In this document: positions 539 to 24,600 of the stretch, one piece after another
Numbering within the stretch: the first letter of the stretch is position 1
Layout: each line of letters opens with the position of its first letter
NCBI GenBank assembly: GCA_963785635.1
Contig: CAWAWB010000007.1
Span: forward strand, 114,199 to 178,198
Source: an uncultured Phycisphaerales bacterium
Lineage (GTDB): Bacteria; Planctomycetota; Phycisphaerae; SM23-33; FEN-1343
DNA: 64,000 nucleotides
Direction: 5' to 3'
Made by a program: the position numbers and the translations under genes
The notes under the pieces: generated by a model
Seen by the model: the letters and a program-made list of their open reading frames with translations, nothing else
Told to the model about the DNA's origin: nothing
Database searches by the model: none

Positions 539-1963
539 TTTGGCGTTCCCCTCCAGTGCGGTGCTGCCGCGCGCGCCGCAATGGGCGATGACGCCGTCGA
601 CGATGCACTCGGCTCCCACGCTGCGCGAGGCTTTGACGAGCACGGTGTCGCCGCCCTTGAGCCACTCATCCACGTGCGCGGCGGCGTCGCGGGCGGCGGG
701 GTATTCCATGATTTTGAGGTGCGTGCCGTTGGTCTCTTTGGCGCCGCGGGCGATGTAGGCGGCCAGGGCCCCCACCGCCACCAGCACGTCGATATTGGAC
801 TGGCCGACCTTGCGGCCAAGTTCCAGGTGAAGCTGGGGCGACTGCTCGCCGAGTTCGCGCATGTCGCCGGCGACGAGCACGCGACGACTGCCTTCCAGGC
901 TGCCCAGGACATCCACCGCCGCGCCCATGGACATGGGGTTGGCGTTGTAGGCATCGTTGATGACGATCACGTCGCCCGCGCGGCGGATCTGAAGGCGCAT
1001 ATCACCCGCGGCCACGTCGGCCAGTGGCGCCCCCGCCTGCTCCAGCGAGAGGCCAAAGCGCATGGCCGCGGCCATAGCCGCCAGGGCGTTCAAGGCATTG
1101 TGTTTGCCGGCCAGGGGCAGCGTGAACCATGCGCGGCCGTTCACCTGGAAACGCTGCTGCGCGCCCATGGACTCCCAGGCGGTCAGCCGCAGCTCGGCCT
1201 TGTCGGACTGGCCAAAGCGGATCAGCCGCACATCGTAGGGTCGCACGGCCTGCTCCAGGGGTTCGCTGTCGGCCCAGATGATGCCGACGCCGCGGCTTTT
1301 TTCCAGCGAGCCGAGGATGGAGGCCTTCTCCACCGCCACGCGCTGGACAGAGCCCAGGCGCTCCAGGTGGCTTGGGCCCACGGCGGTGATGATGGCCAGA
1401 TCGGGCTCGGCGATTTTGGTAAGCGTGGCGATTTCGCCCGGGGCGTTGGAGCCCAGCTCGCAGACGACGTAATCATCGCCCTCCTCCGCCGCCAGCAAAG
1501 TGAGCGGCACGCCGATGTTGTTGTTGAAACTTTTGAGCGCGGCCGAGCCTTTTTTGCTCGCCGACAGGATGTGGTGGATCATGCCTTTGACGGTGGTCTT
1601 GCCGACCGAGCCGGTCACCGCGATCACCTGGCCGGTGAGGTTGCGGCGGTGCATTTTGGCCAGTTCGCCCAGGGCGACGATCGTATCGGGCACGACGATC
1701 AGGCCGCCAAAACCGGTCATATTGGCGGCGGCCGCGGCCTTATCCTTCTGCACGATGGCCGCGGGGCAGCCTGCCGCGGCAACCTGGGCCAAAAAGTCAT
1801 GGCCGTCGAAGTTCCCGCCGGGCAGCGCAACAAAAAGGTCGCCCGCCGCCACCTTGCGCGAATCAATGGCGACCTTCGTGATGCGGATCGGCTCGCGCGG
1901 CGGTGATTTGAGCCAACGGCCGTGCACCTGGCGGCGAATGTCATCCAGCAGCGTCGGTCTCAT
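536..1963 (-). CDS. murF: UDP-N-acetylmuramoyl-tripeptide--D-alanyl-D-alanine ligase MurF
   Basis: ORF 536..2011 carries the Mur ligase P-loop GSVGKTT. The likely start is MRPTLLDD at 1963, preceded by GGAGGTGA and overlapping the murE stop as ATGA. Confidence 0.85.
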   Translation of the reverse strand: MRPTLLDDIRRQVHGRWLKSPPREPIRITKVAIDSRKVAAGDLFVALPGGNFDGHDFLAQVAAAGCPAAIVQKDKAAAAANMTGFGGLIVVPDTIVALGELAKMHRRNLTGQVIAVTGSVGKTTVKGMIHHILSASKKGSAALKSFNNNIGVPLTLLAAEEGDDYVVCELGSNAPGEIATLTKIAEPDLAIITAVGPSHLERLGSVQRVAVEKASILGSLEKSRGVGIIWADSEPLEQAVRPYDVRLIRFGQSDKAELRLTAWESMGAQQRFQVNGRAWFTLPLAGKHNALNALAAMAAAMRFGLSLEQAGAPLADVAAGDMRLQIRRAGDVIVINDAYNANPMSMGAAVDVLGSLEGSRRVLVAGDMRELGEQSPQLHLELGRKVGQSNIDVLVAVGALAAYIARGAKETNGTHLKIMEYPAARDAAAHVDEWLKGGDTVLVKASRSVGAECIVDGVIAHCGARGSTALEGNAK

Positions 1964-3467
1964 CGGCTCACCTCCGCCGGCGCGGGCCGGTGAGATAGTC
2001 GCGCCAAACATTCCGCGGCCACTTCCGTGTCGTCAAAATGGTGCTTCTGCGTGCCGATGATCTGGTAATTCTCGTGGCCCTTGCCGGCCAGGACGACCAC
2101 ATCGCCCGTGGCCGCCTGACTGATCGCCAGCTCGATGGCCGCGCGGCGGTCCGGCTCGACCTTCAAGGTGGCCTTGCCATCCTCTTCAAAGCCGACCAGG
2201 ATGTCGCTCAGGATCTGCTTGGGGTCTTCCGTGCGCGGATTGTCCTGCGTCAAAACCACCACATCGGCCAGTTCCTGCGCCACTTTGGCCATGCGCGGCC
2301 GTTTGGTGCGGTCGCGGTCGCCGCCGCAGCCGAAGAGCACAATCAGCCGGCCTTTGGTGAGCGTGCGCAGGGCCGAAAGCGTGTTGGCCAGCGAATCATC
2401 GGTGTGGGCGTAATCGACGAAGACGTCGAAATCGCTCGGACCCTGCACGCGCTGGCAGCGACCGGGCACGATCACTTCGGTTTGCAGCGCCTCGACGATG
2501 GCTTCCAGCTTGATGCCCAGGGCCAGGCACGATGCCGCGGCGGCCAGGCAGTTGGAAACATTGTGGCGGCCGATGAGGTTCGTGCTGACCTTGCGATTAG
2601 GGCCATCGGCGACGGCAAGCTCGAAGGAAGTGCCGCGCGGGCTGATGCGAATGGCTCGGGCGGTGAGGTCCGCCGCGCTGTCGGCGGCGCCGTCGATTCC
2701 ATACAGGACCACCTCGGCCGCGGTGGATTTTGCCAGTTTTTCCCAGGCGGGATCATCGCGATTTATCACGGCCGCGGCGGAGGCTGCAAGCCCTTCAAAA
2801 AGCAGCGCCTTGGCATCCAGGTAGGCATCCATCGTGCCGTGGTAGTCCAGGTGGTCGCCGGTGAGGTTGGTGAAGGCGGCGATGGCGAAGGGAATCCCCG
2901 CCGCGCGGTGCTGGTGCAGTGCGTGGCTGGAGACCTCCATCACAGCGTGGGTCACGCCGGAGTTCACCATCTGGGCCATCATCTCGGCCAGGAGCACGGG
3001 ACCGGGGGTGGTGTTCTCGGCGGGAATTGTTTTGCCGGCGAACTCATAGCTGATCGTCCCCAGCAGGCCCGTGTTTATGCCACAATGCGACAGGATATGG
3101 CGGACCAGGTACGTGAAGGTGGTTTTGCCCTTGGTGCCAGTCACGCCCACCAGCCTAAGTTTGCGGGCGGGCCAGCCGAAGAAGGCCTGGGCAATGGGGC
3201 CTAGCGCAGCCGCCGCGCACTGGACTTTGGCGCAGGCGACTTCTTTGGGCACGGCGGAATCATCTTCGCAGACTACTGCGCGTACGCGCCGGCGGCAAGG
3301 GCCTGCGGAATATAGGCGTGACCATCGGCCTGCGGCCCGCGCACGGCGATAAAGCACGTGCCTTTGCCTGCGCGGCGAGAATCCGCCGTGATCATCAGCA
3401 CATCAGGATCGCCCCGCCGCGCGAGCACGCCGATGCCCGCGGCCGCAAGCAAACTGCTGAATTGCAT
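1960..3467 (-). CDS. murE: UDP-N-acetylmuramoyl-L-alanyl-D-glutamate--2,6-diaminopimelate ligase MurE, with an apparent frameshift near 3275-3290
   Basis: The 465-aa ORF carries VGVTGTKGKTT. The true N-terminus (ADSRRAGKGTCFIAVRGPQADGH...) sits in a different frame (ORF 3273..3467), so one indel is needed to join them. Confidence 0.8.
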
Positions 3468-3732: not shown

Positions 3733-5511
3733 TTAAAAGGCGCTGGTATTGTCCGCAGGCTTGCCCTTCTGCCCGCCCTTGGCGGGAATTTCCTCATCGT
3801 GTGGGACATCGAGGTAAGCCAAGCCCTGCTCGAGAATGGCTTTGACCACCGGGGCCGCGACCGTGCCGCCGTAAATGGCGCCGGCCTTGGGCCGCCGCAC
3901 ACTGATCAGGCAGACCAGGCGCGGCTTTTCGAGCGGCGCGCCGGCGACGTAGCTGGAAGTGTAGCCCGAGCCATAGGGCGGGATTTGAGCTGTGCCGGTC
4001 TTGCCGAAACTGCTCCAACCGGCCAGACGGCCGGCCTTACCCGTGCCTTCTGTGGGCACCTTGGCCAGGACCCGCAGGCGAAAATCGTGGATAAGCTCCG
4101 ACGCGATCACCTGCTTGACTTCAAAAGCGCCGGCTCGATCCTGCTCCACCTGGCCATCCGCGCCGTAGACGGCCCGCACTAGCTTTGGCCGCAGCAGCAG
4201 GCCATCATTGGCGATAGAGGAAAAGGCGGTGATCATCTGGAGGCCCGTCACGCCCACTTCCTGCCCCATGGGGATGGACCACTTGGAGTCCATAGTCCAT
4301 TTGGGTAGCTTGTTAACCAGGCCGGCATCCTCACCTTTAAGCTCGATGCCAGTGGGCTTGCCAAAACCGTAGGTGGTGATGATGCGATACAGGCGTTCAT
4401 TGCCCAGAATCTCGCCGATATGCGCCATGCCGATGTTAGAACTGTGGATGACGATATCCTCTACCGTGAGATTGCCGTAGCCGCCGTGCACATCGTGCAG
4501 GGTGCGGCCGCGGCGGCAATCCCAGGCGCCGTTGTTGCAGAAGAAGATCTGGCCGTAGTGCACCTTGCCCATGGCCAGGGCCGCTGAAGCGGTGAAGGGC
4601 TTGAAGATGGAGCCGGGCTCGAAGGGGTCGGTGATGGCGCGGTTGCGGCGCTGGTCATCTTCCGCCTTGTTGTATTCATTCAGATCGAAGGTGGGCTCGC
4701 AGGCCAGGGCCAGGATCTCGCCGTTGCGGGGATCCATGACGATGCCGATGGCCGATTCGGCCTTGTTCTTGGCGACGGCCTGGGCGAGCTGCTCTTCCAG
4801 GAAGCGCTGCACGACCACGTCGATGGTGAGCTGAATGGCGTGCCCGTCCCGCGGCGGCTGATAGGCGTTGGGTTCATCCCAGATGGCCCGGCGGCTGGCA
4901 TCGCCCCACAGGACGTTGTAGCCGTTTTCCGCCCGCAGGTACTTGTCGGCATAGAGCTCGATGCCTTCCATGCCGGTTTCCTGCTCGTTGGCGTCGCGCC
5001 CGGCAAAGCCGATCACGTGCGCGGCCAGCGAACCATTGGGATATTCCCGCCGCCACTGAGGCTTTATGCCCACGGCGTGGTTGCGCAGGGCACGGACCGC
5101 CTGGACGGTTTTCTCATCCACATCATCGGCCAGGACGACGAAGCGCCGCTCGTTCTCGCGGCCCTCCTCAAGTTCGTCCTGAATGCGCTCGGCGGACTGG
5201 CCCAGCACCTTGGCCACCGATTTGGCCACCTGCTCGACCTGCTCGGGCGCGATCATCATAGGGTCGATGAAGATTCGCGAGGCCTGGCGGCTGCCGGCCA
5301 GGAGCACCGGCATGGAATAGCTGCGGCCGTAGATGTCGCCGCGGCGGCCGGGAATATCGATCATGATCCGCTGCTGACCCTGCGCCTTGGAGATCATGGC
5401 GGCGTGGCTTTGCGTCTGGAACAGCAGGAGCTTGGCGCCTGCGGCGATCAGCGCTACCAAGAGCAGGCTGAAAATGATGTGGCAGGCATACGGTCGACCG
5501 GTCGCAGACAC
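3733..5511 (-). CDS. ftsI: Peptidoglycan D,D-transpeptidase FtsI (class B PBP)
   Basis: 592 aa with an N-terminal TM helix. Transpeptidase motifs SIFKP, SSN and KTGTA are present. It follows ftsL. Confidence 0.85.
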   Translation of the reverse strand: MSATGRPYACHIIFSLLLVALIAAGAKLLLFQTQSHAAMISKAQGQQRIMIDIPGRRGDIYGRSYSMPVLLAGSRQASRIFIDPMMIAPEQVEQVAKSVAKVLGQSAERIQDELEEGRENERRFVVLADDVDEKTVQAVRALRNHAVGIKPQWRREYPNGSLAAHVIGFAGRDANEQETGMEGIELYADKYLRAENGYNVLWGDASRRAIWDEPNAYQPPRDGHAIQLTIDVVVQRFLEEQLAQAVAKNKAESAIGIVMDPRNGEILALACEPTFDLNEYNKAEDDQRRNRAITDPFEPGSIFKPFTASAALAMGKVHYGQIFFCNNGAWDCRRGRTLHDVHGGYGNLTVEDIVIHSSNIGMAHIGEILGNERLYRIITTYGFGKPTGIELKGEDAGLVNKLPKWTMDSKWSIPMGQEVGVTGLQMITAFSSIANDGLLLRPKLVRAVYGADGQVEQDRAGAFEVKQVIASELIHDFRLRVLAKVPTEGTGKAGRLAGWSSFGKTGTAQIPPYGSGYTSSYVAGAPLEKPRLVCLISVRRPKAGAIYGGTVAAPVVKAILEQGLAYLDVPHDEEIPAKGGQKGKPADNTSAF

Positions 5512-5624: not shown

Positions 5625-5891
5625 TCAATCTTTCAAGGCCGGCTCATGACTGACAGGCGATGAAGAAGGGGCTTCCATGGGAATTCCCATCTCCTGCTTG
5701 CGATTGAGCAAAGCCTGGGGCGACGTCAGATCGCCCAGCCGCACATCCAGCCCGTAAGCGAGCTGCCGCTGACGGTGCAACTCTGCATTCCATTCCTGCG
5801 CCTCATGCCGCATAACCACTTCCTGGCGGCGCAGTTCCACCATGCCCACCGCTATCGCCGTCAACATTACAATTACCATTGCGATACGCAT
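5625..5891 (-). CDS. ftsL: Cell division protein FtsL-like (small bitopic coiled-coil protein)
   Basis: ORF 5625..5954. The likely start is MRIAMVIVMLTAIAVG (TM helix) followed by a coiled-coil segment. It sits immediately upstream of ftsI. Confidence 0.5.
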   Translation of the reverse strand: MRIAMVIVMLTAIAVGMVELRRQEVVMRHEAQEWNAELHRQRQLAYGLDVRLGDLTSPQALLNRKQEMGIPMEAPSSSPVSHEPALKD

Positions 5892-5964
5892 TGCACGCTT
5901 TTTAACATGGCACGGCCGAGACCCGCACAATTCAGGGCAAGATCCCCATGCCACGCCGTTTAGC

Positions 5965-7058
5965 CTAATTCGGAATCGTCAACACCATGCCGATATCCAA
6001 CCGGTCGCTGCCACCCAGTGTGCCGCGGTTTGCCTCCAGCAGCTTCTTGACCGCGTCGTTGCTGCCATCCTTCATCTGGATTCTGGCGATAGATGTCAAG
6101 TTGTCGCCCTGGCGGACGGTGTAGGTTTTGCCGGTTTTGGATGCCGCGGTCTTGGCCGCGGGAGCTAACGGAGCGGACTTGGCCACCAAGGGAGAAGGCG
6201 TGGAGGAAGATGGATCCAGCTTCACCAGGCCCAGCGTTTTGGGGGCAACCGCCACGGGCGTCAGATTGCTGGTAGCGGGCGCCGGCGCACCTGCCGGCGC
6301 GGGGACTGCCGGTACGGGACTCGGCGCGCCCGCCTTGGGCGGGACAACGGTGAGGTCCTTGAGATAATCGTGCAGACCGCGGCCATCCAGCACGCGCGTG
6401 GCCTCCGGCGGCAGCGGCGGGATCACCAGTTCCTGGCCGACCTGCAAGTTCTCGGCGCTGGAGAGCGTGGAGCGGTTGGCCTCCAGGATCAGCTTGTAAT
6501 ATTGCTCGTTGCCGCGGCCGTACACCTTGGTGGCGATGTTATAGAGAGTGTCTTTCGGCGCCACCTTGTACGTGCGCTTGGGTGCGGCGGGCCCGATGGC
6601 GGCGGCAGGCGCCGGTGCGGGAGGCGCGGCGGGCGCGGCCGCTGTCGGCTGCACAGGCTGCACTTTGACCGGCTGGATGGGCACGGTCGTTGTCGGCGGG
6701 ATTGCCACAGCCACCTGGGCGCGGGGCTGGCCGGCTGCGCCGCGAGGACCACCACCGGCACGGGCGTTACGGCCGGCCCGACGGCGATAGGCTCTTCCGC
6801 GTGCGGGACAACCACCACGGGCTTTGGCTCCCCTGTGCTGTAGGTCGTGGGATTGGCGCGCACGGTGGTGATGCCGTCACTGGCCGGGCTGGGCAGCGCG
6901 GGCGCCGCAGGCTGCGTGCGATGCGCCATCAGGCCATCCACGGGCGTGGGCGAGCCGCGCGGCGGGACGGTGCCCGGCCGGGCATTGCCCAAAATCACGC
7001 CGAAACAAATGATAAAAACCAGACCAACAAGCAGCGCGACCTTCGTTTCCCGCGTCAT
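5965..7058 (-). CDS. Membrane-anchored, proline-rich protein with two LysM domains (apparent frameshift near 6700)
   Basis: The N-terminal part (ORF 6489..7058) has a TM helix, VALLVGLVFIICFGVIL, then a Pro-rich linker. The C-terminal part (ORF 5965..6714) has two LysM motifs, TYKVAPKDTLYNIA and YTVRQGDNLTSIA. Confidence 0.6.
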
Positions 7059-7073
7059 GTCAGCGGCTCCATC

Positions 7074-8008
7074 CTATAGACCGGGGGCGGATCCTTCCGC
7101 CGCCCATTCGAAGCAGCGCAGCTTGGCGCTGCGGCTGCGCGGATTACTCTGTATTTCCTCATCGTCAGGAACGATGGGCTTACGTGTAATGATTCTCCCA
7201 AATCCGTCGGATTTCCAAGAAGAAAATGCAGATTTTACAGGACGATCTTCCAGCGAGTGAAAACTGATGATGGCCACGCGGCCGCCGGGGCGGCGCAGGC
7301 GGGGCAGGCCCTTCAGGAGCGAGCGCAGCGAGTCGAGCTCCTTATTCACCGCGATGCGCAGGGCCTGGAAGGTCCGCGTCGCCGGATGAATGCCCTTGGT
7401 GTGATGGCGGCGATACGCCGCCATGACGATGTCCGCCAACTGAGAAGTTCGTTCGATGGGTCCGGTTTTCCGGGCATTAATAATGTAGCGGGCGATCTGC
7501 CGGCTGCGCCGCTCATCGGCATAGTTGAAGATCAAATCCGCTAGTTTCTGCTCGGAAAGTTTGTTGACCAGATCGGCCGCGGTGGGGTTGTCGCCGCCGG
7601 CATCCATGCGCATGTCCAGCGGACCATCGGCGCTGAAACTGAAGCCGCGGGCAGGATCATCCAGTTGCGTGGAGGCCACGCCCAGGTCGGCCAGCACAAC
7701 ATCCGGCTTTTTCATCTCGGCGGCCTGGAGAATCTCCTTGATATCGCCGTAGTCGGCGTGGAAGAAGCGAAGGCGATTCTTCGAGGAATCCTGGAACTTT
7801 TCCAGCCGCTCCTTGGCCCGGCGGAGATTCTGCTCATCCTTGTCGATGGCCACGAGGCGACATTCGCTGGATGCCCGTTCCAGCAGCATTTCGGCGTGGC
7901 CGCCCAGGCCGACCGTGCAGTCGACGATGTTGAGGCGGCGCTGGGGCTCCAGCAACTCCACCACTTTTGAGCCCAGGACGGGCGTATGCCCCGACTGGCC
8001 TGACATGC
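7074..8008 (-). CDS. rsmH: 16S rRNA (cytosine1402-N4)-methyltransferase RsmH/MraW
   Basis: The sequence HTPVLGSKVVELLEP...DCTVGLGGHAEMLLE is a typical RsmH N-terminus. The longest ORF extends to 8261, but the probable start is the ATG at 8008 after a GAGG. The gene follows mraZ. Confidence 0.8.
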
Positions 8009-8392
8009 CGCAACCTCTAGGCGCCCTTGCGCCGCTCGACGCAAGCCGCTTCTTTAATTCGGGAGAAAAGTCCACCCGGGCATACTCACCCCCCAGGGCC
8101 TGAACTCTCGCCAGCCGTTCAGCCAATTCCGCTAGGCGCTGCCGGGTAATCCTGCCGGGAATTGCTGGGTCCGCCTGGACGGCACGAGGTTCGGCGACTT
8201 TAGCGGCCTGGCTTCCCTGCCGGGCCTTCAGGTCGCTCGCGGCCGACTGAAGGGTGAGCATGACGGAATCCTTTCACACCGGGTGAAACTCTTCTCATCA
8301 AAGTCCGTCCGCAGTGGCGACGCCATCCATGGCATCGCCGCGGCGGCAGACACGCGTGCTACGGTGAATCATCCGTGAACGGTTCACTTTCG

Positions 8393-8869
8393 CTAATTAG
8401 AGGGCGGCGGCAGAACTGACCCCGAAAGCTGCTCGCCCATCTCCAACATCGCCTCGTCATAGCCGGGCAGTTGCTCCTGCAAATGCCCGTCCCACTCGTC
8501 GCGCGGCCAGATCTCAATGTGGTCGTCGTGGCCGACCAAAGTCACCTGCTCGCCGATCACGGCCCGCTGCATCGACTTTTCCGGCAGCACTATGCGGCCC
8601 TGCTTATCCGGCAGGAGGTAGCGGGCCATCGCGAAAAACAGGCCCAACCTCTCGCCGCTGCGCGTGGGCAGCGGAGAACGCTTCAAGCTGGCGGTCAAGC
8701 GGCGGTAGTAGCCGTCCGGGTAAAGCCACAAATGCTTCTTAATGCCCAGGACGAGGAAAAAACCCTGCCCGTCCTGAACCGGATCGATCTGCTCCCGCAG
8801 CGCGGCGGGGATAGCCAGCCGGCGTTTATCATCCAGAGCCTGATCGAACTCTCCGACAAATAGTGCCAT
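8393..8869 (-). CDS. mraZ: Transcriptional regulator MraZ
   Basis: 158 aa beginning MALFVGEFDQALDDKRRLAIPAALRE, a duplicated MraZ-type fold. It is the first gene of the dcw cluster. Confidence 0.85.
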   Translation of the reverse strand: MALFVGEFDQALDDKRRLAIPAALREQIDPVQDGQGFFLVLGIKKHLWLYPDGYYRRLTASLKRSPLPTRSGERLGLFFAMARYLLPDKQGRIVLPEKSMQRAVIGEQVTLVGHDDHIEIWPRDEWDGHLQEQLPGYDEAMLEMGEQLSGSVLPPPSN

Positions 8870-9242: not shown

Positions 9243-10376
9243 TCAGTTCCCCTGATACCGCACAAAACTCACCAGATCGCGCAGCCACTGGCCATCATCC
9301 ACATCTTCGCTGGTGGTGGAATCCTGCTCGACGAGCACAAGGAGCGTATTGACGGGCCGATTGATGCGGGCGCTGGCGCCGAGTTTTTCGGCCAGGCTCA
9401 TAACAGAGCTTGCTTCCGCGTCCGAGACGAGCGCAGCTGTCATCATCCTGCGTGAGTTTTGGATCTATTACGGCCAAAGTGAGCTTGCCAAAAGAGGCGG
9501 TATCAGACGTGCCTGTGGCGATAAAGACCTCGCCCTCCCAACGTCCTTCAATCACCACGACCGATGGCGGGGAATCCGCCGCCCAACTTGCCAGATAGAG
9601 TTTTGCCTGGCCCGTTAAGAGCGGCCAGATCGCCGCCGCTTCATCCTGCATGCCCTCCATGCTTCCCAGGCCGGCGGCCCTAGAACCCTGGTGAACCAGC
9701 ACAGCCGCGCTGGTGGGTTGAGAGTCGGCTTGAACGATGCAGCCGCGGGCGATCGAGGACGGCTTTTGTTCCAGCGCCACACGATCATCTGCCGCCCGGT
9801 CAAGTCGGTTTCCGCCAATGCGGCGCGGCAGCACATCCACGCCTGCCAGTAGTGGGCGGCTAAAAGCAGATCCTGCCGCGCGAACGTCAGCGGTTGTGCC
9901 AGCTCCACGATTGGATCTTTGGCCGCGGCAACCACGGATAATGCGTCCCCCATAGCTGCCACCACATGTGCATCTTTCTCGTAGCCGGGCGGCGCTGACT
10001 GGCGGTAGGAACGGATGGCCTCCCGCAGCGCGGCAAGCTGCGGCTCCTGGCAACCGGCGAGAATCGATTCTGACAGGTCCAAATGGCCTGCGCCCGCCAG
10101 GGCGATGGCCGCGGAGCGATATTGCTGCACCTGGCCATCGAGTTCCAGCGACTCAGCGAACAGTGCCGCGGCCGCTTTGGCATTGCCCGTGGATAGCGCC
10201 CACTCGGCCTGCTGCCAGACTTCCTCGGCCGAACGCGCATCGGCCTTGCTCGCCTCGCGTTTGCAACCTGACGTCAATATCAAAGCCGCCAGCAGTATCG
10301 CCAATAAAGGGAATGCCTTGCGGCGGATTTGTGAAGCGACGGCCCCGGCGTGGTTTGATGGAGGCCAAAAAATCAT
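9243..10376 (-). CDS. Hypothetical lipoprotein (apparent frameshifts)
   Basis: The N-terminus has a signal peptide plus lipobox (LAILLAALILTSGC). The reading continues through three overlapping minus-strand ORFs (9615..10376, 9295..10053, 9243..9446). Confidence 0.4.
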
Positions 10377-11176
10377 GGCCGCGCCTTTCCGCTTTGACTG
10401 CCACGAATGCGTTCCAATGCCTGTTGCCAGGGCAGTTGGCCGAGGGCGGCCATGCGATTCTGGTCCGTCAAATCCACGTGCAGCGGCGTGATGCTGATGA
10501 GGCCGCGCTCCAGGGCCATGACGTCGCTGTCGGCGGCGGGATTGCGAAAGCCGTACCAGTCGGTGAGTTGGTAGTGCTCGCCGCCCTGGCCATCGGTGCG
10601 GCGGCTGTAGCGTTCATCCACGGCCGCGACGGACTGGGGAGCGATGTCGATGCCGCGCGGGGCATCGGAAGTCATCATGGGCAGGTTCACGTTCACGAGC
10701 TGGCCGTTTTTCAGCCCCCCCGCCAGCAGGACATCCAGCACTGCGCGGCAGCAGCGCGCGGCTCGCGTGAAATCCAGCTCGCCGCCGGTGGAAAGGCTAA
10801 AGGCCACGGCCTTGGCGCCCAGCATGGCGCCTTCGGCCGCGGCGGCGACCGTGCCGCTATAGAGCACGTTGATGCCCGTATTGGCGCCGAAGTTGATGCC
10901 GCTGAGCACCAGGTCCGGCGGGGAGGGCAATAGCGCGCGGAAGGCCAGCTTTACGCAATCGGCTGGACGGCCGGCGACTGAAAGGCCCCAGAATTTTCCA
11001 TCGATGCTTACGCGTTCGACGGCCAGTTCGCCCCCCACCGTGATGCCATGCCCCGCGGCGGATTGCGGCGCGGCGGGCGCCACCACGGAGACCTCGCCCA
11101 TGTCCCGGACAGCGGCCTCTAAAGCCACCAGGCCGGGAGCGAGAATGCCATCATCATTTGTCAGCAGGATGCGCAT
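10373..11176 (-). CDS. surE: 5'/3'-nucleotidase SurE
   Basis: The start is the canonical SurE N-terminus MRILLTNDDGILAPGL. Confidence 0.85.
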   Translation of the reverse strand: MRILLTNDDGILAPGLVALEAAVRDMGEVSVVAPAAPQSAAGHGITVGGELAVERVSIDGKFWGLSVAGRPADCVKLAFRALLPSPPDLVLSGINFGANTGINVLYSGTVAAAAEGAMLGAKAVAFSLSTGGELDFTRAARCCRAVLDVLLAGGLKNGQLVNVNLPMMTSDAPRGIDIAPQSVAAVDERYSRRTDGQGGEHYQLTDWYGFRNPAADSDVMALERGLISITPLHVDLTDQNRMAALGQLPWQQALERIRGSQSGKARP

Positions 11177-11246
11177 GTGCTCGATCAGTACATTATGCGC
11201 ACAGCCGAGCGGCTGTGCCACATTAACAGCCCTCAAGCCTCAACCC

Positions 11247-13526
11247 TCACTTCACCGCCGTAATAGCCGGAATGAGAACCAGGCCGTTTTCGGTGGCGTC
11301 CTTGCCCAGTGAAATCTCCAGGCTCTCGATGGCCACATTGGGACGGGGGTTGACCCACTCCTGCACGTAGAACTTGTGGTCACCATCGATGGGCGCGGGC
11401 ACGGCCATGAAGCAGGTGTTGTAGACCCAGTTGACCGTCGGATAGGGCCAGAACTTGTTGATGACGCCGATGTGCTGGCCGAAATTGGCGGTGAAATTCT
11501 CCGCGCGGCCATCGGCATACTTCACCTTGTAGTTGATGAGCTGCGCGGGGCCGCGGTGGGCCATGGAAAATGTGAGGGCCAGGAAGACATCTTCCATGGT
11601 CGTGCCGTGCATGAGCAGCAACCGCTTGGCCTTGCGGCCCAGCTTCACCACGGCGCGGGAGTTCTTTGCCGCCGCGTTTTTTGCCTCCACGCCGGCCGCT
11701 TTGGAAAGGATGATCGAGCGAGACAGCATGCCCTTGCCATCGGCCTCCAGGGTGAATGAGCCCGTGCCGATAACGCTGGTCATCTGCTTCCCTGTGGCGA
11801 GTGTGCCCGCCAGCGGCTTAGGCAGCGGCGCCGCCACGGCGGAAAGATCGATCGCGGCCAGCCTGCTGTTATCCGGTCTTACCATCCAGCGCGACTCGCC
11901 TGAAACCTGATCCATGGCCAGCGGATGCCAGCGGGAGGCGAGCTCGCACACGCGCCGCTTCTCCATCGACCTATTGAGCCAGAGCGTGCTGGAGGAGGCG
12001 AAGATGTCGTTCACCACGCGGTTGTGGCCGAAGGCGTAGGCATCGACGGCGCACCAGGTAGAGACCTCCGCCCCTAAATGCCACTGGGGATCGCTGCGGT
12101 GCTTCCAGTCTTTAAACTCCAGGTCGATCCAGTTGCCGTAGACCTTCTGGAAGCCCTTCTTTGCGAAGTAATCATAGGTCACGCCTTCGGCGTTGCCCTG
12201 GCCGGAGGCCAGGGACTTTTCATCCGCCGGCTGCCCGATCCCCCAGTACCAGTCCATGATGAGGATGTCTTTGGCGACCTTGTCCACCGCCTTCCACGTG
12301 GCGGGCAGGAACCATTTGCGGCCGGTTTCCTGCTCCACCTTGCTCATTTCCAGACCGCCATACTTGGTGGGCATAAGCTTGTCGCCCCACATGACCGTGC
12401 GGATATTGCGGTCGGCCAGGAAATCGTGGATGCGGTTGAGGTCATAGGCCAAAAGGTCGTGCCCGCTCATGTGCCGGCAGCGCGGGCAGTGGGCGATGTG
12501 CATCAACTCATCGTGGCCGATGTGGATCATCGGCGGGTTAAAGACCTCGATAATCTCGTCCAGCGCATCGAACAGGAGCTCATAGGTCCGCGGGTGCATC
12601 GGGCAGTACGTGTCGGGGTACGGATCATCGCTGCGCTCGGCGATTTCGGGGTAGGCCAGGCACAGCCAGTAACAATGCGAGAGCGACTGCACCTCGGGGA
12701 TGATCTGGATGTGGCGGCGCTTGCACTCGTCGATGATGTCCTGGATCTGCCGCCGCGCGAGCCCTTTACCACCGGCCAGTTCGGTGTGCGTGGAGTCCTT
12801 GGAGTAATAGCGCGACTCCTGAAGGCACTCGGGGCCGCGCGTGATAGCGTACGGCTTTTTGCGCAGGGAGGACGGCATGGGGTCTTTGGCGGCCGTGTAA
12901 TTACGGGCGATTTTGACGAAGTTCTTCCAGGTGGTGTTGATGATGCGATGGCGCTTGAATTCAAACCCGCCGCCCAGTTCCAGAAACAGCGTGTTGAAAC
13001 GGAAGGCCGACATCTGGTCCAGCCAGCGCCCAAAGAAATCGAGGTTCTTGGCCGCGGGGAGGAACATGTGCATACCGCGAATGGGCAGCGAGGGCCAGTC
13101 GCGGATTTTTTGCGCCGGCAAATTCGGCGCGTGCTGCTCCAACAATTGCGCCAGCACCTGGGCGGCGAAGAAAATCCCCGCCGCATCGCGGCCGGCCAGT
13201 TCGATTCCCTTGGGCGATATATTCAGCACGTACCCTTCGCTCTTTCGCGCGGCGGCATCCTGGCCCGCCGCGCCATCCAGATCGGTCACAGTCAGCGTGA
13301 CTTTCTTTCCGCGGGCAGGAATAAAGGCGGCGGCGCGAGTATCTAACACCCGCCGCACACCCTGGGCGGCGGTGCGCAGCCAACCGGCGTCTTTTGCGAC
13401 TTGAATATCGATGGGGCCGGAGATTTTCAGCGTGCCTTTGCCGATGTTCTGCTGCTGCGGGCGGGGCCAGGGATATATCTGTTCGAGTTTTGCGCTCATG
13501 GACTCATTCCTTCGCTGGTTGGACAT
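11247..13526 (-). CDS. GH20-like beta-N-acetylhexosaminidase family protein
   Basis: 759 aa. The segment IIPEVQSLSHC...MIHIGHDE resembles the GH20 catalytic H-x-G-G-D-E region with the D-E pair kept. Confidence 0.5.
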   Translation of the reverse strand: MSNQRRNESMSAKLEQIYPWPRPQQQNIGKGTLKISGPIDIQVAKDAGWLRTAAQGVRRVLDTRAAAFIPARGKKVTLTVTDLDGAAGQDAAARKSEGYVLNISPKGIELAGRDAAGIFFAAQVLAQLLEQHAPNLPAQKIRDWPSLPIRGMHMFLPAAKNLDFFGRWLDQMSAFRFNTLFLELGGGFEFKRHRIINTTWKNFVKIARNYTAAKDPMPSSLRKKPYAITRGPECLQESRYYSKDSTHTELAGGKGLARRQIQDIIDECKRRHIQIIPEVQSLSHCYWLCLAYPEIAERSDDPYPDTYCPMHPRTYELLFDALDEIIEVFNPPMIHIGHDELMHIAHCPRCRHMSGHDLLAYDLNRIHDFLADRNIRTVMWGDKLMPTKYGGLEMSKVEQETGRKWFLPATWKAVDKVAKDILIMDWYWGIGQPADEKSLASGQGNAEGVTYDYFAKKGFQKVYGNWIDLEFKDWKHRSDPQWHLGAEVSTWCAVDAYAFGHNRVVNDIFASSSTLWLNRSMEKRRVCELASRWHPLAMDQVSGESRWMVRPDNSRLAAIDLSAVAAPLPKPLAGTLATGKQMTSVIGTGSFTLEADGKGMLSRSIILSKAAGVEAKNAAAKNSRAVVKLGRKAKRLLLMHGTTMEDVFLALTFSMAHRGPAQLINYKVKYADGRAENFTANFGQHIGVINKFWPYPTVNWVYNTCFMAVPAPIDGDHKFYVQEWVNPRPNVAIESLEISLGKDATENGLVLIPAITAVK

Positions 13527-13656: not shown

Positions 13657-14721
13657 TTAATACCCCCTGCTGGGGTAGGTTCCATCCGCAGTCGTGTGCT
13701 TGAGAATCTCGCGGTTGTCATCGGTTGGGGTGTAACTGACTACATGGCCGTCCCACATGACCGCCGCGGGATTGGGCTGGTAGTACTCGAAAGGCCACGT
13801 CCGGCCCAGCCACTGGTCATCATACGTGGTGTTGGCGCATCCGAAACAGGGTGGACAACTCATCGTCTGCCAGGCGTGGCTGTAATATTCAATCACGCTG
13901 AAATCCACACCCGTCGGCCGGCCGCTATTGGGGTCGCCGATAGACTGATGGACGAACAAGGGATAGGCGCTGGTGGCGGCATCGGCGCAGTTGTCACCGT
14001 CGCCCATCCAGATGGTGTTGCTGGCGTCGTTGAGCTCTTCGGGCCTATAAGGTCCCCAGCCATTGTTACGGTAATGAGGCGCGCCGGTATCGCTTGAGCC
14101 AAAGGGGAAGCTGTTTAAGAGGGTGGACCAGAAATAGGTGCAGCGGACCCTGCCGTAACGATCAAAGCTTGTGCTGCTGATCGTGCGATAGCTATTTCGG
14201 ACCAGGGGGCAGACGGCCAGGGGGCAATCGGTGACATTGTACTCGGGGCTGCTGGAGCCGTACATCCATTGGTTGTAGTCGATATCGACCGGCAAACAAT
14301 GCGTGACCACCAGGGAATCGACGGCCGAGGGACAAAAGTACCCATTGGGATCATTCAAACTGTAAGGTTGGCCGAACGTGTAATAAGGCAGCGGAACGTG
14401 GGGATCGTACATGTAGGCCGGCGCACCGCCGCAATAGGCATTGGTGAATTGCCCGGTCGGGTGAATCATCCAGCCGTGGGCCTGCGAGGCGTACATGGTA
14501 CCCGCGTTGTACAGGCCGTGCAGGTTGGCGGCGTCCAGCGCCTGCATGGCCTGCATCCTGGCCTGCTGGAGGCTGGGCAAAAGAATGCTCACCAGCAGGG
14601 CGATGATGGCGATCACCACCAGCAGCTCGATCAGCGTAAAGCCGCGCAGGGAAGGCCAGGGCCGTTCGGGCGCGGCCTTTGCATTACCATGTGTTTGCTG
14701 TACGCAGATCGTAGGTTCCAT
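13657..14721 (-). CDS. Prepilin-type N-terminal cleavage/methylation domain protein with a DUF1559-like C-terminus, paralog 1 of 4
   Basis: Class III signal and pseudopilin helix [29 protein letters not shown]. This family is expanded in Planctomycetes. Confidence 0.8.
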
Positions 14722-15751
14722 CCTTTGTACAATGCTTCAGAATTGAGTAATCCTGTGCCTCCGGCGGATCATACTGGGTCACGTGACCATCCCATTGTGC
14801 AGCGGCGGGCGAGGGATGGTAATAATCGAAGATGCCCTGCCGGGAGAGGGTGTTATCAGCGGCGGTAACCGATGCGCCAAAACAGGGCGGGGGGGTGAAA
14901 AAATCATCCCCGATGCCATAGTGGGCTATAGGGCTGAAGTCAACGGCCAGCGCATTGTTTGCACTGCCGCCATGGTTGGGATCAGGCCCGACTTTCTTTT
15001 TCGGAACGAAACCCGCATAGGTTCCCGCATCGGTGCAATTATCGGCATCACCCATCCAGATGGTATTGCTGGCATCATCCATTTCTTCAGGCCTGTATGG
15101 ACCATAGCCGTTATCACGATAGTGCCATTTGCCCGTACTGCTCATGCTCATCGGATCGCTGGTCAGCAGCGCCGACCAGAAGTAGGTGAATCGCACCATG
15201 CCTGTACTCTGGCTGTAATAAGTGATGGATGAGGCATCGAGGGTTGGAAACGAATTTCGGGCGAGGGGGCATACGCCGATGGCCACCTCGGTTACGTGCC
15301 ACTGGGGCGACCCGACACCCCACTGAACCATGCTGCTGTCCACATCGATCGGAACGCACTCTTTAACCACCAGGGAATCAATGGGAGATGGATCCCACCA
15401 CTGCACCAAGGGGTATTCGTTGTACGGCGGCCTGCCAAAGTTCCAGAAAGGCCCGGGGGTGGTAGGCTCGTACATGGTGGGCGGCGTGGTGGCGGGAATG
15501 TAATACATCAAGCCGCCAGGTTTATCGGCGAAATGGCTCATCGGATTACACATGTAGCCGTTGGATTGCGAGGCATACATGGCGCCCGCGGCGTACAGGC
15601 CGTGCAGATTGCCGCAGCACAGCGATTCCATGGCCAGGACCCTGGCCCGCTGGAGGCTGGGCAAAAGGATGCTCACGAGGAGCGCGATGATGGCGATGAC
15701 CACGAGCAGTTCAATCAGCGTAAAAGCACGCCTGCGGGATGCGGAAGAAGA
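14684..15751 (-). CDS. Prepilin-type/DUF1559 protein, paralog 2 of 4
   Basis: [29 protein letters not shown]. The likely GTG start gives (M)[13 protein letters not shown], in parallel with paralog 3. The ORF track extends to 15820. The 3' end overlaps paralog 1 by 38 bp. Confidence 0.75.
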
Positions 15752-15923
15752 ATGCACGGTTGGCCAGTTCCTACATATCACTGCCACAACTCCTAGATTC
15801 GGGGCGGGATTTGGATGCACTAGAACAACATTTTCTCATTACCGGCGGGACTTGTCCATATGTTGGCTTCTGGAATGGCAAAAAATCTTGCGGACTTCCG
15901 GAAAAAACCGCGATGCCCTCAGC
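15752..15923 (-). promoter_or_regulatory. Conserved promoter/5'-leader of DUF1559 paralog 2 (the same block recurs at 16934..17153 for paralog 3)
   Basis: Near-identical blocks are shared between 15760-15910 and 16935-17090. On the coding strand they read TTGCCA-N15/17-TAT(A/G)GA, a -35/-10 candidate, then a ~110-nt conserved leader up to the start codon. Confidence 0.4.
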
Positions 15924-16933
15924 TTAAGGACTCTGGTGCAAGGGCAGCTTGCCATCCTTGGTGGTCAGCTTGAGAACATCATCGTTGTTGTTGATGCCTG
16001 GAACGCTGTAGGGGCTGACGTGGCCGTCCCAGTGGGCGCCGGAGGGATCGGCCTGGTAGTACTCGCCCGTAGCTCCAGTGCTATAAGTGATAATTGAGCC
16101 AAAGCAGGGAGTTGCGCTCGTCATCCCGAAGATCGAGTAATAGGGGTTGTAGTACAGCACGGGCGCGGCGTCGCAAGGGGCGCCTTTATTGGCGGCGGTG
16201 ACGCCATTTGGATCGCCCAGCGCAAATAAGAGCGGATGCTGCCCCACATCGCCGACCATCATGGCGTCGCCCATAAACAGCGTGCGGCTGGGATCATTCA
16301 GCTCCTCCTGCTTATAGGGCCCCCAGGCGTTGTCGCGATAGAACGGGCCGCCGAAGTACAGGCTGGTCAGCAGCGAGGACTGGAAATACGTGGTCTGGTT
16401 TCTGCCCCACGTTTCCACGTCACAGCCGGCGATAACCGGAAAGGCGTTACGTGCCAGGGGACAGGCCGCCACGGCGGCCATGGCCGCGTAGTATTTGGGG
16501 CTGCCGGAGCTGCCTTCATACATCCTCTGGGTGAAATCAACATCGACGGCGATCGTCTTAGTGACGATCCAGGAGTCGGTCGCCATTGGCTGCCAAAAAT
16601 AGTTTGCCTCGTAATCATAAGGCGGGCCGAAGCTCAGGTACGGCGGCGGCGTAGCCGCATCCACGAAATTAGCGAGGGGCGAGACACTGAAGGTGCCCGT
16701 AACGGCGAAGGCCGAGTACGGGTGGCACATGAAGCCCTTGTTGGCGGAGGAATACATGGCGCCGGCCTGGTACAAGCCGTGCAGATTGCCGCCGCACAGC
16801 GATTCCATGGCCAGCTTTCTGGCCTGCTGGAGACTGGGCAACAGAATGCTGACCAGCAGGGCGATGATGGCGATCACCACGAGCAGCTCAATCAGGGTGA
16901 AAGCACGCCTGCGGGATGCGGAAAAAGAACGCA
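15924..16933 (-). CDS. Prepilin-type/DUF1559 protein, paralog 3 of 4
   Basis: [47 protein letters not shown]. The ORF track extends to 17105, but a conserved ATG at 16933 is preferred. Confidence 0.75.
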
Positions 16934-17153
16934 TGGCCGGCCAGCTCCTACCTATCACAGCCTGAATTCGGGGGCGGGGTTTTCGGTCACTAAAACCACA
17001 TTTTCTCATTACCGGCGGAACTTGTCTATAGTGCAACGCTTCTGGAGTGGCAAAAAATCTTGCGGACCTCCCGAAAAAAACCGCGACGCCCCTTTCACAG
17101 AGCATCGCGGCGATAAAACCATCCTCAGCCGGTTCAGGGGCCGGCGGCGAAAC

Positions 17154-18218
17154 CTAGCGCCGATCCTTCAAGGGCAGCAGGCCATCTTTGGTCGTCAGCT
17201 TCACAACATCATAGGCATTGTTCACGCCGGGCGGGCTGTAGGTGCTGACGTGGCCGTCCCAGTGGCCGCCCGAGGGATCCTGCTGGTAATACTCCCCCAC
17301 GGAGGGGCCGTTGTTATACGACATCACGCCGGCGAAACAGGGGAAATCATCCATTATTCTATAATTGCCAAAGATGCTGTAGAAGGGAGTGTAGTACTGG
17401 ACCGGCGCGGCATCACAAGGGATATTGGTGGCGTTGCTGGGGGTATTGGGATCACATAAATAAAACTTGATCGGGGGTTGGCCGATATCATTGCACATGA
17501 TGGCGTCGCCCATCCAGAGGGTCTTGCTTGCGTCGTTCAGCTCTTCCTGCTTGTAGGCGCCCCAGACGTTGTTGCGATAGTTCGGGGCGTTGGTGGAATC
17601 ACTGCCTTCCCAACTGGTCATCAGCGAGGACTGGAAATACGTGGTCTGGCTTCTGCCCCACGTTTCGGTCGAGGTAGGGCAGAGGGTGGGGAAGGCGTTG
17701 CGGGCCAGCGGACACACGGCCACGGCAGCCTGGGCTACATAGAACTTGTTGGGGGGGTTGCCCTGGTTCGTCTCATATATTCTGTGGCCAAAATCGACGT
17801 CGATAGCGATCGTGTGGGTGACGATCCAGGAGTCGACCGCCAGCGGCTGCCAGAAGGTATCGGCCGGGGTGACCTTGCAGTAGTCATACGGCGGGCCGTA
17901 GGTCCGGTACGGCGACGGAGTGCCGTAGGGATCCACAAGATAACCCGGACCGCTCAAGGCGAAGTCGGCGGGCGGAACGAACAACGCGAACTCCGGGCAC
18001 GGGTGGCACATGAAGCCGTTGTTGTCGGAGGAATACATGGTAGCGGCCTGGTACAGGGCGTGCAAATTACCGCTGCACAGCGATTCCATGGCCAGCTTTC
18101 TGGCCTGCTGGAGGCTGGGCAACAGAATGCTGACCAGCAGGGCGATGATGGCGATAACCACCAACAATTCGATGAGCGTAAAGGCCAGTTTAGATCTGCG
18201 GGACGGGCGCCGGTTCAT
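17154..18218 (-). CDS. Prepilin-type/DUF1559 protein, paralog 4 of 4
   Basis: [48 protein letters not shown]. Very similar to paralog 3. Confidence 0.8.
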
Positions 18219-18542
18219 GCTGCAATCTCCTCACTAATCCACCTTGGAAAGTTCGCCTTGTGCAACCGTAAGAGTGACCGCTTTGCGCCTCCGTGGGCAG
18301 CCCGCTAAAACCAAGCGAAGCAACTGCCGGTGGGTCCGGCAGCCGAAACCTCAAGGGCCGGCGCACAGTTACCCGGTCATGAAAACATTCTATAGCACTT
18401 CCTGGTCCGCCGCTACACTATTTTCGCAACAGAAAGTTAGAAAAAGCTGACCGGCATATACCTTAGCCACCCACCCTTGTGAGCTTGGTCGAAAAAACCG
18501 CCGTAAACTCTTATCGCAACGGAAGAAACCGGCGATAGGTTT

Positions 18543-22263: not shown

Positions 22264-23392
22264 TCAGCAGATCCTGGCCGCGATGCACCACCTGCTCCAG
22301 CGCAGCTCGTTATTTTCAAACCGCGCCAGCACAAATTCCGCCTCCTGCCCCGCCGCCAGTTGCGGCAGTTCCAGATGGATGATGGAGGCCGGGATTAAGC
22401 TTTGCTGCCGCCAGGCATCGGCCAACGACCAACCGAGCTGGCACATCCGCTCAACGCAGCGATCCGCCTGGAACCAGTTGCCCGCCAGGAGGCGCATATC
22501 TTCTTTCAGGCTGCACCGGCCCTGCGGCTCGATAACTACATTGCCGTAATCCCCCGGCGGCAGGCTGGAAAGGCCGCTGGCATCGGAGACGAGAAAAACC
22601 TTGTCGCGCCCCTTGGCGGCCATCACGGCCATGATTAAATCACCCGGCAGATGCTGACCATCGGCGATCAGCCCCAGTTTCAGCCGCGGCTCTGCCAGCC
22701 AGGTCCATAATGGATTTTCGTGGCGGTGGATCATGGCCGGCGCGCCATTGCCGAAGTGCGTGACGATGTCGGCCCCGGCATCGATGGCCGCGCGAATGGA
22801 ATCGGCCTTGGGACCGCAGTGGCCCATTGAAATCCGCAGCCCTTCCTTCACCGCGCGGCGAATCGTCTCCAGCGCCCCAGGCAGTCTCCGGGTCCAGGTT
22901 GAACATCATGATCCGCCCGCCGGCCGCCTCCTGCATCTTCGCCCATTCATCCCAGTTGGGATCGCGCATGTATTTGGCCGGATGTGCGCCGCGCCAGCCA
23001 TCCTGGCGGGAGATGTACACGCCCTCGGAAAACGCGCCAAACCACAGGTGCTCCAGGTCCTCATCCGCCTGGACCAGCTTGTCGAAGGTGAGCAGGCTGG
23101 CCAGGAGCAGATCGAACGGGCAGGTGGACGTCGTAAACAGCGCGCGGCCGATGCCGTGACGGCGCAGATGGTCGGTGACGATGCGCAACCCCTGGGGCTT
23201 TTCGGCCAGATGATTGTTGGCGTAACCCAGCGCGCCATTGTGCTGGAGGTCCACCAGGGGCGGGGCGATCAGGGGCAGATCATCGCCCTTGCACGCCTGG
23301 ACGCTGGTGATCCGATCACCCGTGATGGTCACTTCGACCGCCTGGCCGGTCAGGGTTTTGCCGCGATATTTCTTCGCCATGCCGCTCTCCAT
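22264..23392 (-). CDS. nagA: N-acetylglucosamine-6-phosphate deacetylase NagA-like amidohydrolase (apparent frameshift near 22850)
   Basis: The N-terminal part (ORF 22640..23392) has the metal-binding VDLQHNGALG region. The C-terminal part (ORF 22264..22851) has ISMGHCGP...THFGNGAPAM, typical of NagA. Confidence 0.65.
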
Positions 23393-24475: not shown

Positions 24476-24600
24476 GGTTCGTTCCTTAAAGCGAAAACGT
24501 AAGCATAGCCGAATGGGGCAACCATTCAAGTGAACTTTGCCACAGTCTTGGCACTTGGGGCTTCAGGCTTGAGGAACTGCCGGAGGTATTTACGCCTCGC

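Follow-up and report, generated by a model that had tools for sequence, protein, structure and literature searches.

Within the gene cluster for division and cell wall (dcw) of an uncultured Phycisphaerales bacterium we found that the gene situated between rsmH and a small FtsL-like gene belongs to a large, uncharacterised family that is specific to the class Phycisphaerae. The gene lies on the minus strand at positions 5965–7058 of a 64,000-nucleotide (nt) stretch of contig CAWAWB010000007.1, and this whole stretch is called the window below. It is near certain that the family consists of type II (N-in) bitopic wall-binding proteins with two LysM domains, and the family itself, its architecture, its synteny and a frame break in the window copy are held with that same confidence. 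On balance this transmembrane (TM)-LysM protein is probably a divisome-associated wall-binding protein, a role that we infer from the gene order, the translational coupling and the conserved TM helix. Because the gene is wedged between rsmH and ftsL-ftsI, is often coupled, and encodes a TM helix that is more conserved than its wall-binding domains, it makes a concrete candidate, inexpensive to test, for a factor of the divisome or the septal wall that is particular to this lineage.

The layout of the family was read from the alignment of its members as M-[TA]-R-E-T-[KR] at residues 1–6, a TM helix at residues 7–25, an Ala/Pro-rich unconserved linker, LysM domain 1 (LysM1), a second unconserved linker and a C-terminal LysM domain 2 (LysM2). 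In the window the start codon and the six-residue cytoplasmic tail MTRETK occupy 7041–7058 (−); R3, E4 and T5 do not vary within the family. Next, at 6984–7040 (−), comes the conserved TM helix of residues 7–25, VALLVGLVFIICFGVILGN, with a small-residue stripe G/A8-xxx-G12-xxx-I16-xxx-G/A20. Searching Pfam bore out the LysM assignment that the first-pass annotation had made from the letters of the DNA alone: PF01476 matched the window protein in two stretches with E = 4e-18 and 65.4 bits against a cutoff of 20.9. LysM1, found with Pfam and NCBIfam, lies at 6418–6573 (−), corresponding to residues 48–99 of the downstream one of the two open reading frames (ORFs) over which the window copy is split (ORF B), and LysM2, the best PF01476 stretch, lies at 5971–6123 (−), residues 198–248 of ORF B, at the extreme C terminus. 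The short N terminus, single TM helix, Pro/Ala linker and two LysM domains that had been described for this protein are thus right at the family level, except that the two domains are not both C-terminal; LysM1 is central, LysM2 is terminal, and the linker between them measures about 95 residues in the window.

The conservation of these parts differed strongly. Among 84 family members the mean frequency of the commonest residue was 0.74 over the N terminus and TM helix, 0.47–0.50 over the LysM domains and 0.14–0.20 over the linkers. The TM helix is defined by G/A8, L9, L10, G12, F15, I16, F19, G/A20 and L23; after it come Ser and either an acidic residue or Asn. In the same 84 members, G12 was present in 100%, I16 in 98%, L23 in 85% and F15 in 82%. 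Basic residues precede the helix and acidic or polar residues follow it in the family alignment, a charge pattern that fits the N-in orientation. An AlphaFold2 (AF2) model of one homologue (P0002), based on a 25-sequence alignment, gave a helix at residues 3–28 with a predicted local distance difference test (pLDDT) score of 84–94, disorder at 30–130 and LysM1 at 138–189 (pLDDT >90). Its C-terminal half showed a short helix at 201–209, disorder, and LysM2 at 307–358 (pLDDT ~97), and both LysM domains were modelled as E-H-H-E units. Some members have a third LysM domain, and the distant member P0023 (460 amino acids (aa); locus L007) has three.

A word-indexed search with the repaired window protein, in which the two frames are joined as described below, returned full-length relatives at 27–55% identity. 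In an exhaustive profile search of 1.84 billion cluster representatives the E-value was still 4e-61 at rank 150, and 2911 representatives were found at E ≤ 1e-30, a count that includes unrelated multi-LysM proteins. This search used no pattern of DNA or peptide, and among the matches listed the anchor or a close variant of it was present in about 120 of the 133 representatives of 50% clusters that were new. Scanning one genome per species gave 252 genomes with a confirmed relative, the closest of them 39% identical to the window protein. The labels of the reference genomes were taken from the best 80 of these 252 relatives, and all 80 were labelled Phycisphaerae, Phycisphaerales, Tepidisphaerales, Phycisphaera, or unclassified Planctomycetota or Planctomycetales metagenome-assembled genomes (MAGs); the named matches of the protein search were likewise Phycisphaerae. 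As a MAG labelled Phycisphaera mikurensis carries the gene (locus L043), the cultured P. mikurensis probably has it too. In databases the family goes under the name 'LysM peptidoglycan-binding domain-containing protein', or 'YgaU' at JGI. No relevant paper that brings together LysM, Planctomycetes or Phycisphaera, and dcw was found in the searchable literature, and to judge from that search the TM-LysM family is previously undescribed.

The gene order around the family was conserved across genomes. In six homologues that were looked up individually, the order was mraZ, a small ORF, rsmH, the LysM gene, a small bitopic ORF and a penicillin-binding protein (PBP) gene, which can be followed by murE, murF, mraY and ftsW. 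Among the reference-genome loci, rsmH was directly upstream in 74 of the 75 that were testable, with a median gap of 95 nt, a PBP gene was present within 4 kb downstream in 51 of 63, and an ORF of 75–150 aa with a TM helix and a coiled coil came next in 74 of 87. The start of this FtsL-like ORF overlapped the LysM stop codon in 25 of 74 loci and was within 40 nt of it in a further 27. The LysM gene has what is expected of a dcw gene: across genomes it keeps its place among canonical dcw genes and shares their orientation. The synteny is near certain, and its pattern indicates that the LysM gene is an integral part of an mraZ-rsmH-X-ftsL-ftsI operon, often translationally coupled to the FtsL-like gene. 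Conservation at this position had been proposed for the Planctomycetota as a whole; it holds strongly within the class Phycisphaerae and does not extend over the phylum.

Variants of this arrangement were also observed. On a Tepidisphaeraceae chromosome (L070; OY969783.1, 10001–16859 of the fetched locus) the LysM and FtsL-like genes are the last ones before a break in the dcw cluster, with PSCyt, DUF1553 and DUF1501 genes downstream, and in a second locus (L080; CP087563.1, 10001–16883) the cluster is broken at the same place, with GGDEF-EAL, RuvA and RecN-like genes downstream. The genes mraZ, rsmH and LysM are together in L070, and rsmH and LysM are together in L080, where mraZ was undetected upstream. 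One metagenome protein of 587 aa (P0058) is called as a single gene that runs from the C-terminal part of RsmH into a family member. Judged by its sequence, the junction is more like a read-through or a frame error than a real fusion, and the case shows how tightly rsmH and the LysM gene abut.

The first-pass annotation had assigned one LysM protein to 5965–7058, which is correct for the family and does not hold for the interval in the window, where the gene is frame-broken. The span is 1094 nt long (1094 mod 3 = 2) and holds two overlapping minus-strand ORFs in different frames instead of one ORF. ORF A (189 aa; 6489–7058, −), the TM part, begins MTRETKVALLVGLVFIICFGVILGN and is authentic N-terminal coding sequence to about position 6725, after which it reads through out of frame as Arg/Cys/Trp-rich nonsense (past about residue 112); it matched nothing in Pfam or NCBIfam. 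ORF B (249 aa from the GTG at 6714; 5965–6714, −) is in a frame that is open from 6876 and is nonsense upstream of about 6735, and it then encodes a Pro/Ala-rich linker, LysM1, the second linker and LysM2. In the source record the annotation is limited to a C-terminal piece of 247 aa (P0001), which starts at the GTG at 6708 and has no anchor. Third-position GC moved from the frame of ORF A to that of ORF B between about 6760 and 6640, and the stretch that reads as sensible protein passes from one frame to the other between about 6745 and 6712, which we took as the frame-break zone (6712–6745, −). Within it, CCCC at 6723–6726 is the sole homopolymer of at least four bases where both frames read sensibly, and this run is the likeliest site of a 1-nt deletion. 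Adding one C there restores a 365-codon gene in which ...AAQPASP is joined to RAQVAVAIPP..., and all homologues inspected are single uninterrupted polypeptides with the same N-terminal anchor.

Other genes of the window showed the same kind of damage. A nagA-like gene (N-acetylglucosamine-6-phosphate deacetylase; 22264–23392, −) is split over two frames and is a second frame-breaking indel in the window, with its ORF at 22640–23392 matching residues 62–170 of PDB entry 7nut_A and its ORF at 22264–22851 matching residues 203–384. Beside it, a peptidase C45/AAT-like gene (23416–24529, −) also looks frame-split, with N-terminal sense in the ORF at 23867–24529 and the AAT domain (Pfam, 3e-10) in the overlapping ORF at 23416–24468. 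Pfam evidence for further split genes in the window was uninformative, and the split in the nagA-like gene came from the PDB searches. These observations suggest that the assembly of the window is error-prone. As the nagA-like gene in the same window is also frame-broken, the break in the LysM gene is most likely an assembly indel error, or at most a very recent mutation, and not a biological feature.

It is improbable that the window gene is a true pseudogene, or that it is expressed as separate TM (189 aa) and anchorless LysM proteins and is dispensable in this organism. The break is present in the deposited sequence, whose annotation calls the 247-aa piece alone, but both halves of the gene are otherwise clean, with intact motifs, no second lesion and LysM domains that still score 4e-18. 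The first 26 residues are identical at 25 positions to those of the homologue P0002, with which overall identity is only about 50%. Also, the break sits at a homopolymer run, similar breaks in other genes of the 64 kb point to sequence error, and a LysM protein with neither anchor nor signal would remain cytoplasmic, apart from its ligand. The two frames would also be joined by a programmed −1 ribosomal frameshift on C-CCC: the tRNA-Pro in the P site, paired with CCC, could slip back by one base on CCCC, which would give the exact in-frame product. This explanation was rejected as extremely unlikely: the homologues are all unbroken, so that none of more than 80 homologous genes needs such an event, there is neither a canonical slippery heptamer nor an evident stimulatory structure, and CCCC runs are common in DNA of 65–69% GC. 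In practice, users of the window should be aware that its assembly has frame-breaking indels and that the public annotation of the LysM gene is a truncated, anchorless 247-aa product.

The family occurs in a lineage with an unusual division apparatus. Phycisphaerae have been reported to possess a near-complete dcw set from which ftsZ, ftsB and ftsA are missing (PMC12283558, PMC12673574), the loss of FtsA in the class being reported in the former of these studies (PMC12283558), and they divide by binary fission (PMC12283558; PMC5147048; PMC12673574). The means by which planctomycetes divide in the absence of FtsZ is recognised as an open question (PMC5147048, PMC12673574). Using tblastn with the E. 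coli FtsZ sequence, we found no FtsZ-like sequence in the 64 kb or in 90 fetched loci, none of which reaches the ftsQAZ position. The earlier statement that the window cluster has no ftsZ extends only as far as mraY, where the cluster leaves the window. Published comparisons of division genes in the Planctomycetes-Verrucomicrobia-Chlamydiae (PVC) group score the canonical dcw genes by COG only.

In the mechanism that we propose for the TM-LysM protein, the conserved TM helix would dock in the plane of the membrane onto the septal peptidoglycan synthase complex (FtsW/FtsI/FtsL-like), and the two LysM domains on their flexible spacers would bind glycan strands. In this way the protein may tether or retain the synthase at the existing or nascent wall, or may modulate the output of the synthase. 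Docking is proposed because conservation of the TM helix exceeds what a passive anchor would require and because the helix carries the small-residue stripe, and the combination of docking and glycan binding is the simplest mechanism because only the tail with the TM helix and the LysM domains are conserved. The logic, in which the TM helix targets and the LysM domain acts, would be that of YneA of B. subtilis, here made constitutive in the division operon of a lineage without FtsZ, FtsA and FtsB. Constitutive co-expression with the presumed partners argues against a pure inhibitor, and the sequence is silent on whether the protein helps or restrains the synthase. It is doubtful that the role goes further, with the protein being a lineage-specific core component of a divisome that lacks FtsZ, FtsA and FtsB, in which the invariant tail and the TM helix bind FtsW/FtsI/FtsL and the LysM domains sense the wall at the division plane. 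If this were true, a self-reinforcing loop would result in which the synthase stays where the septal wall is, as FtsN-SPOR provides in Proteobacteria, and the loop would help to place or maintain constriction without a Z-ring. The protein was also considered as a substitute for FtsB, which is unlikely, as no coiled coil follows the TM helix in the AF2 model of P0002.

Several points weigh against a role of the TM-LysM protein in the divisome. Gene order alone is no proof of divisome membership, and genes of general wall synthesis are found in dcw clusters as well. The linkage of the family to rsmH (74/75) is tighter than that to ftsI (51/63), and Tepidisphaerales-like genomes keep the LysM gene with mraZ-rsmH and have ftsI and the mur genes elsewhere. 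Most of the canonical dcw genes are dispensable in the planctomycete P. limnophila (PMC12673574), so that within this phylum a place in dcw may not mean a part in division. The first 10 residues were the pattern with which the reference-genome loci were fetched, and their conservation in those loci is partly circular; positions 11–25, which include G12, F15, I16, the small residue at 20 and L23, lie outside the pattern and are untouched by this circularity, as is the pattern-free search. A single conserved face of the TM helix was not significant in a helical-moment test (permutation p = 0.13), the whole helix being conserved. There is also a small chance that the frame break is a genuine inactivating mutation in the source organism.

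Some of these points would suit the main rival explanation, that the protein is a general peptidoglycan tether or envelope organiser, which anchors the inner membrane to the wall everywhere and is co-regulated with wall synthesis, with no specific role in division. We regard this as possible but rather unlikely. LysM is a generic glycan binder in many non-division proteins, the JGI label and the best NCBIfam match, which stays below its cutoff (69.9 vs 134), are those of YgaU/LysM, and both the retention of the gene beside mraZ-rsmH where ftsI and the mur genes have moved and the dispensability of most dcw genes in P. limnophila speak for such a tether. However, a mere anchor would need no TM helix that is more conserved than the binding domains, the FtsL-like start overlaps the LysM stop in a third of the loci, which suggests stoichiometric co-production, and neither BON nor another feature of YgaU is present. 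A built-in brake or checkpoint on septal synthesis, which like YneA or ChiZ would keep FtsWI inactive until its release, for instance by proteolysis or by phosphorylation of the invariant tail, seems quite improbable. Its layout of a TM helix and extracytoplasmic LysM is common to YneA and ChiZ, both inhibitors of septal peptidoglycan synthesis, its R-E-T cytoplasmic motif is invariant, and the NCBIfam model of YneA weakly matched its LysM part (E = 3e-5). This match scored 23.9 against a cutoff of 60 and covered the LysM domain only, whereas the known inhibitors are small, induced by DNA damage and encoded outside dcw, and the TM-LysM gene would be co-transcribed with its presumed targets and so produced along with them. 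Moreover, the family has two LysM domains on long spacers and not one held near the membrane. The divisome-associated wall-binding protein set out above is the reading that we prefer.

The neighbouring ORF at 5625–5954 (−) would encode one of the presumed membrane partners of this protein. The ORF encodes 109 aa, and homologues favour the ATG at 5891, which gives an 88-aa protein starting MRIAMVIV.... It has a TM helix followed by a coiled coil and is encoded directly upstream of ftsI, which is the architecture and position of FtsL/DivIC. In the neighbour family, 7 of 51 members matched FtsL_2 and 4 of 51 matched DivIC, with weak E-values (best 0.0048 and 0.0011), and the window protein itself matched none of the Pfam families FtsL, FtsL_2 and DivIC. 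The profile of the neighbour family found generic coiled coils only in the PDB, and hhalign against E. coli FtsL gave no match (probability 0.5%). With weak matches from a minority of members and none to E. coli FtsL, a firm identification as FtsL was dropped, and the protein is called FtsL-like by position and architecture. In locus L007 (5422–6129) two small ORFs, of 120 and 105 aa, stand between the gene of P0023 and the PBP gene. They may be a pair of the FtsL/FtsB type, in a lineage that is said to be without FtsB.

The gene order of the window cluster that had been given earlier, mraZ-rsmH-[LysM]-ftsL-ftsI-murE-murF-mraY, was confirmed on the minus strand. It starts with mraZ (8393–8869; Pfam MraZ, 1.9e-22) and rsmH, also named mraW (7074–8261; Pfam Methyltransf_5, 3e-99; TIGR00006), and continues after the TM/LysM gene with the small bitopic TM and coiled-coil ORF already described, a class B PBP of the FtsI transpeptidase type (3733–5511; Pfam PBP_dimer and Transpeptidase), murE (1960–3357), murF (536–2011) and the first ~180 codons of mraY (3–539), which runs off the start of the window. 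The rsmH stop and the start of the LysM gene are 15 nt apart, with a GGAG Shine-Dalgarno sequence 9 nt upstream of the start, and the gap from the LysM gene to the FtsL-like gene is about 10–73 nt. A terminator scan found no terminator on the minus (coding) strand within the cluster, and promoter and terminator scanning of the cluster gave nothing above chance.

Between mraZ and rsmH, Phycisphaerae loci contain a small ORF of about 46–79 aa with the motif RL..LA.RLA.VQALG.EY.RV.FS, copies of which were seen in L001 (6806–7039), L005 (6787–7020), L008 (6755–6994) and L003 (6895–7035). In the window it reads in frame into rsmH, giving a 395-aa ORF, so that the N-terminal ~85 residues of the window rsmH (8007–8261, −) correspond to this conserved ORF, which is a separate gene in related loci. 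It had no Pfam annotation in our look-ups, and it may be a second lineage-specific dcw gene. Just upstream of the window dcw cluster are surE (10373–11236, −) and a GH20 beta-N-acetylhexosaminidase-like gene (11247–13526, −), and surE is also near mraZ in L001 and L011, a neighbourhood shared with the window. Functions in amino-sugar and wall turnover are plentiful in the window, as seen from the GH20-like gene, surE and the nagA-like gene. Further on, 13657–18230 (−) holds four tandem paralogues of about 355–395 aa each with a prepilin-type N-terminal methylation motif at the start (Pfam N_methyl), and such tandem N_methyl paralogues are typical of planctomycetal genomes. The source organism is placed in the Phycisphaerae by the relatives of its LysM protein and by the SurE-to-mraZ neighbourhood that it has in common with L001 and L011, and the paralogues agree with a planctomycete.

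The TM-LysM family resembles several known systems in part. YgaU/Kbp, the BON-LysM protein, has a LysM domain of similar subtype and provides the best NCBIfam match (PRK11198), but with 69.9 bits the match stayed below the cutoff of 134, no BON domain was matched in the present protein, and YgaU is cytoplasmic or soluble and encoded outside the dcw cluster. In Gram-negatives, the LysM domains of NlpD and DipM direct these proteins to the peptidoglycan of the division site. However, NlpD and DipM are lipoproteins or soluble periplasmic proteins with LytM/M23 domains, whereas the present family has no catalytic or LytM domain and is held by an uncleaved TM anchor.

FtsN acts late in division at the FtsQLB-FtsWI complex. 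The family is laid out like FtsN, DedD and DamX of Proteobacteria: after a short tail in the cytoplasm and a single TM helix comes a long Pro-rich linker, and the C terminus carries a domain that binds peptidoglycan. The bitopic N-in topology with a long low-complexity periplasmic linker is that of FtsN. The first-pass annotation had pointed to this common design and to a possible remote similarity. The overall design stands, but homology to FtsN was rejected: no SPOR or FtsN match was found for the window protein in Pfam or NCBIfam at E ≤ 0.1, and hhalign of the family profile against E. coli FtsN gave a probability of 0.4%. The conserved periplasmic activation ('essential') helix of FtsN also has no counterpart in linkers as variable as those of the 84 members (0.14–0.20), the closest subgroup having a short helix only after LysM1 (AF2 of P0002). 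In contrast to the FtsA-binding cytoplasmic tail of FtsN, the present tail has 6 residues in a lineage where FtsA is reported lost, and ftsN is not a dcw gene, while the present gene is part of dcw.

The nearest mechanistic precedent would be, by analogy, the TM-LysM proteins of the YneA/ChiZ type. The present family differs from these in several ways. There is no sequence relationship with YneA beyond the LysM fold, as the match to NCBIfam NF010723 was confined to the LysM part, and the family has two, sometimes three, LysM domains on spacers of ~100 residues. ChiZ (Rv2719c) of M. tuberculosis has a disordered N terminus of 64 residues instead of a six-residue tail. YneA and ChiZ belong to the DNA-damage (LexA) regulon, whereas the present gene is inside a dcw operon, 15 nt after rsmH, where LexA boxes were not searched, and the family is found in diderm Phycisphaerae that lack FtsZ. 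The common features are a single N-in TM helix, an extracytoplasmic linker and LysM, all of which are present in our family; in ChiZ the linker between the TM helix and the LysM domain has 26 residues (PMC7851954). In YneA of B. subtilis the TM helix binds TM7 of FtsW and is necessary and sufficient for septal localisation, and peptidoglycan binding by its LysM domain is needed for its effect (PMC13396833).

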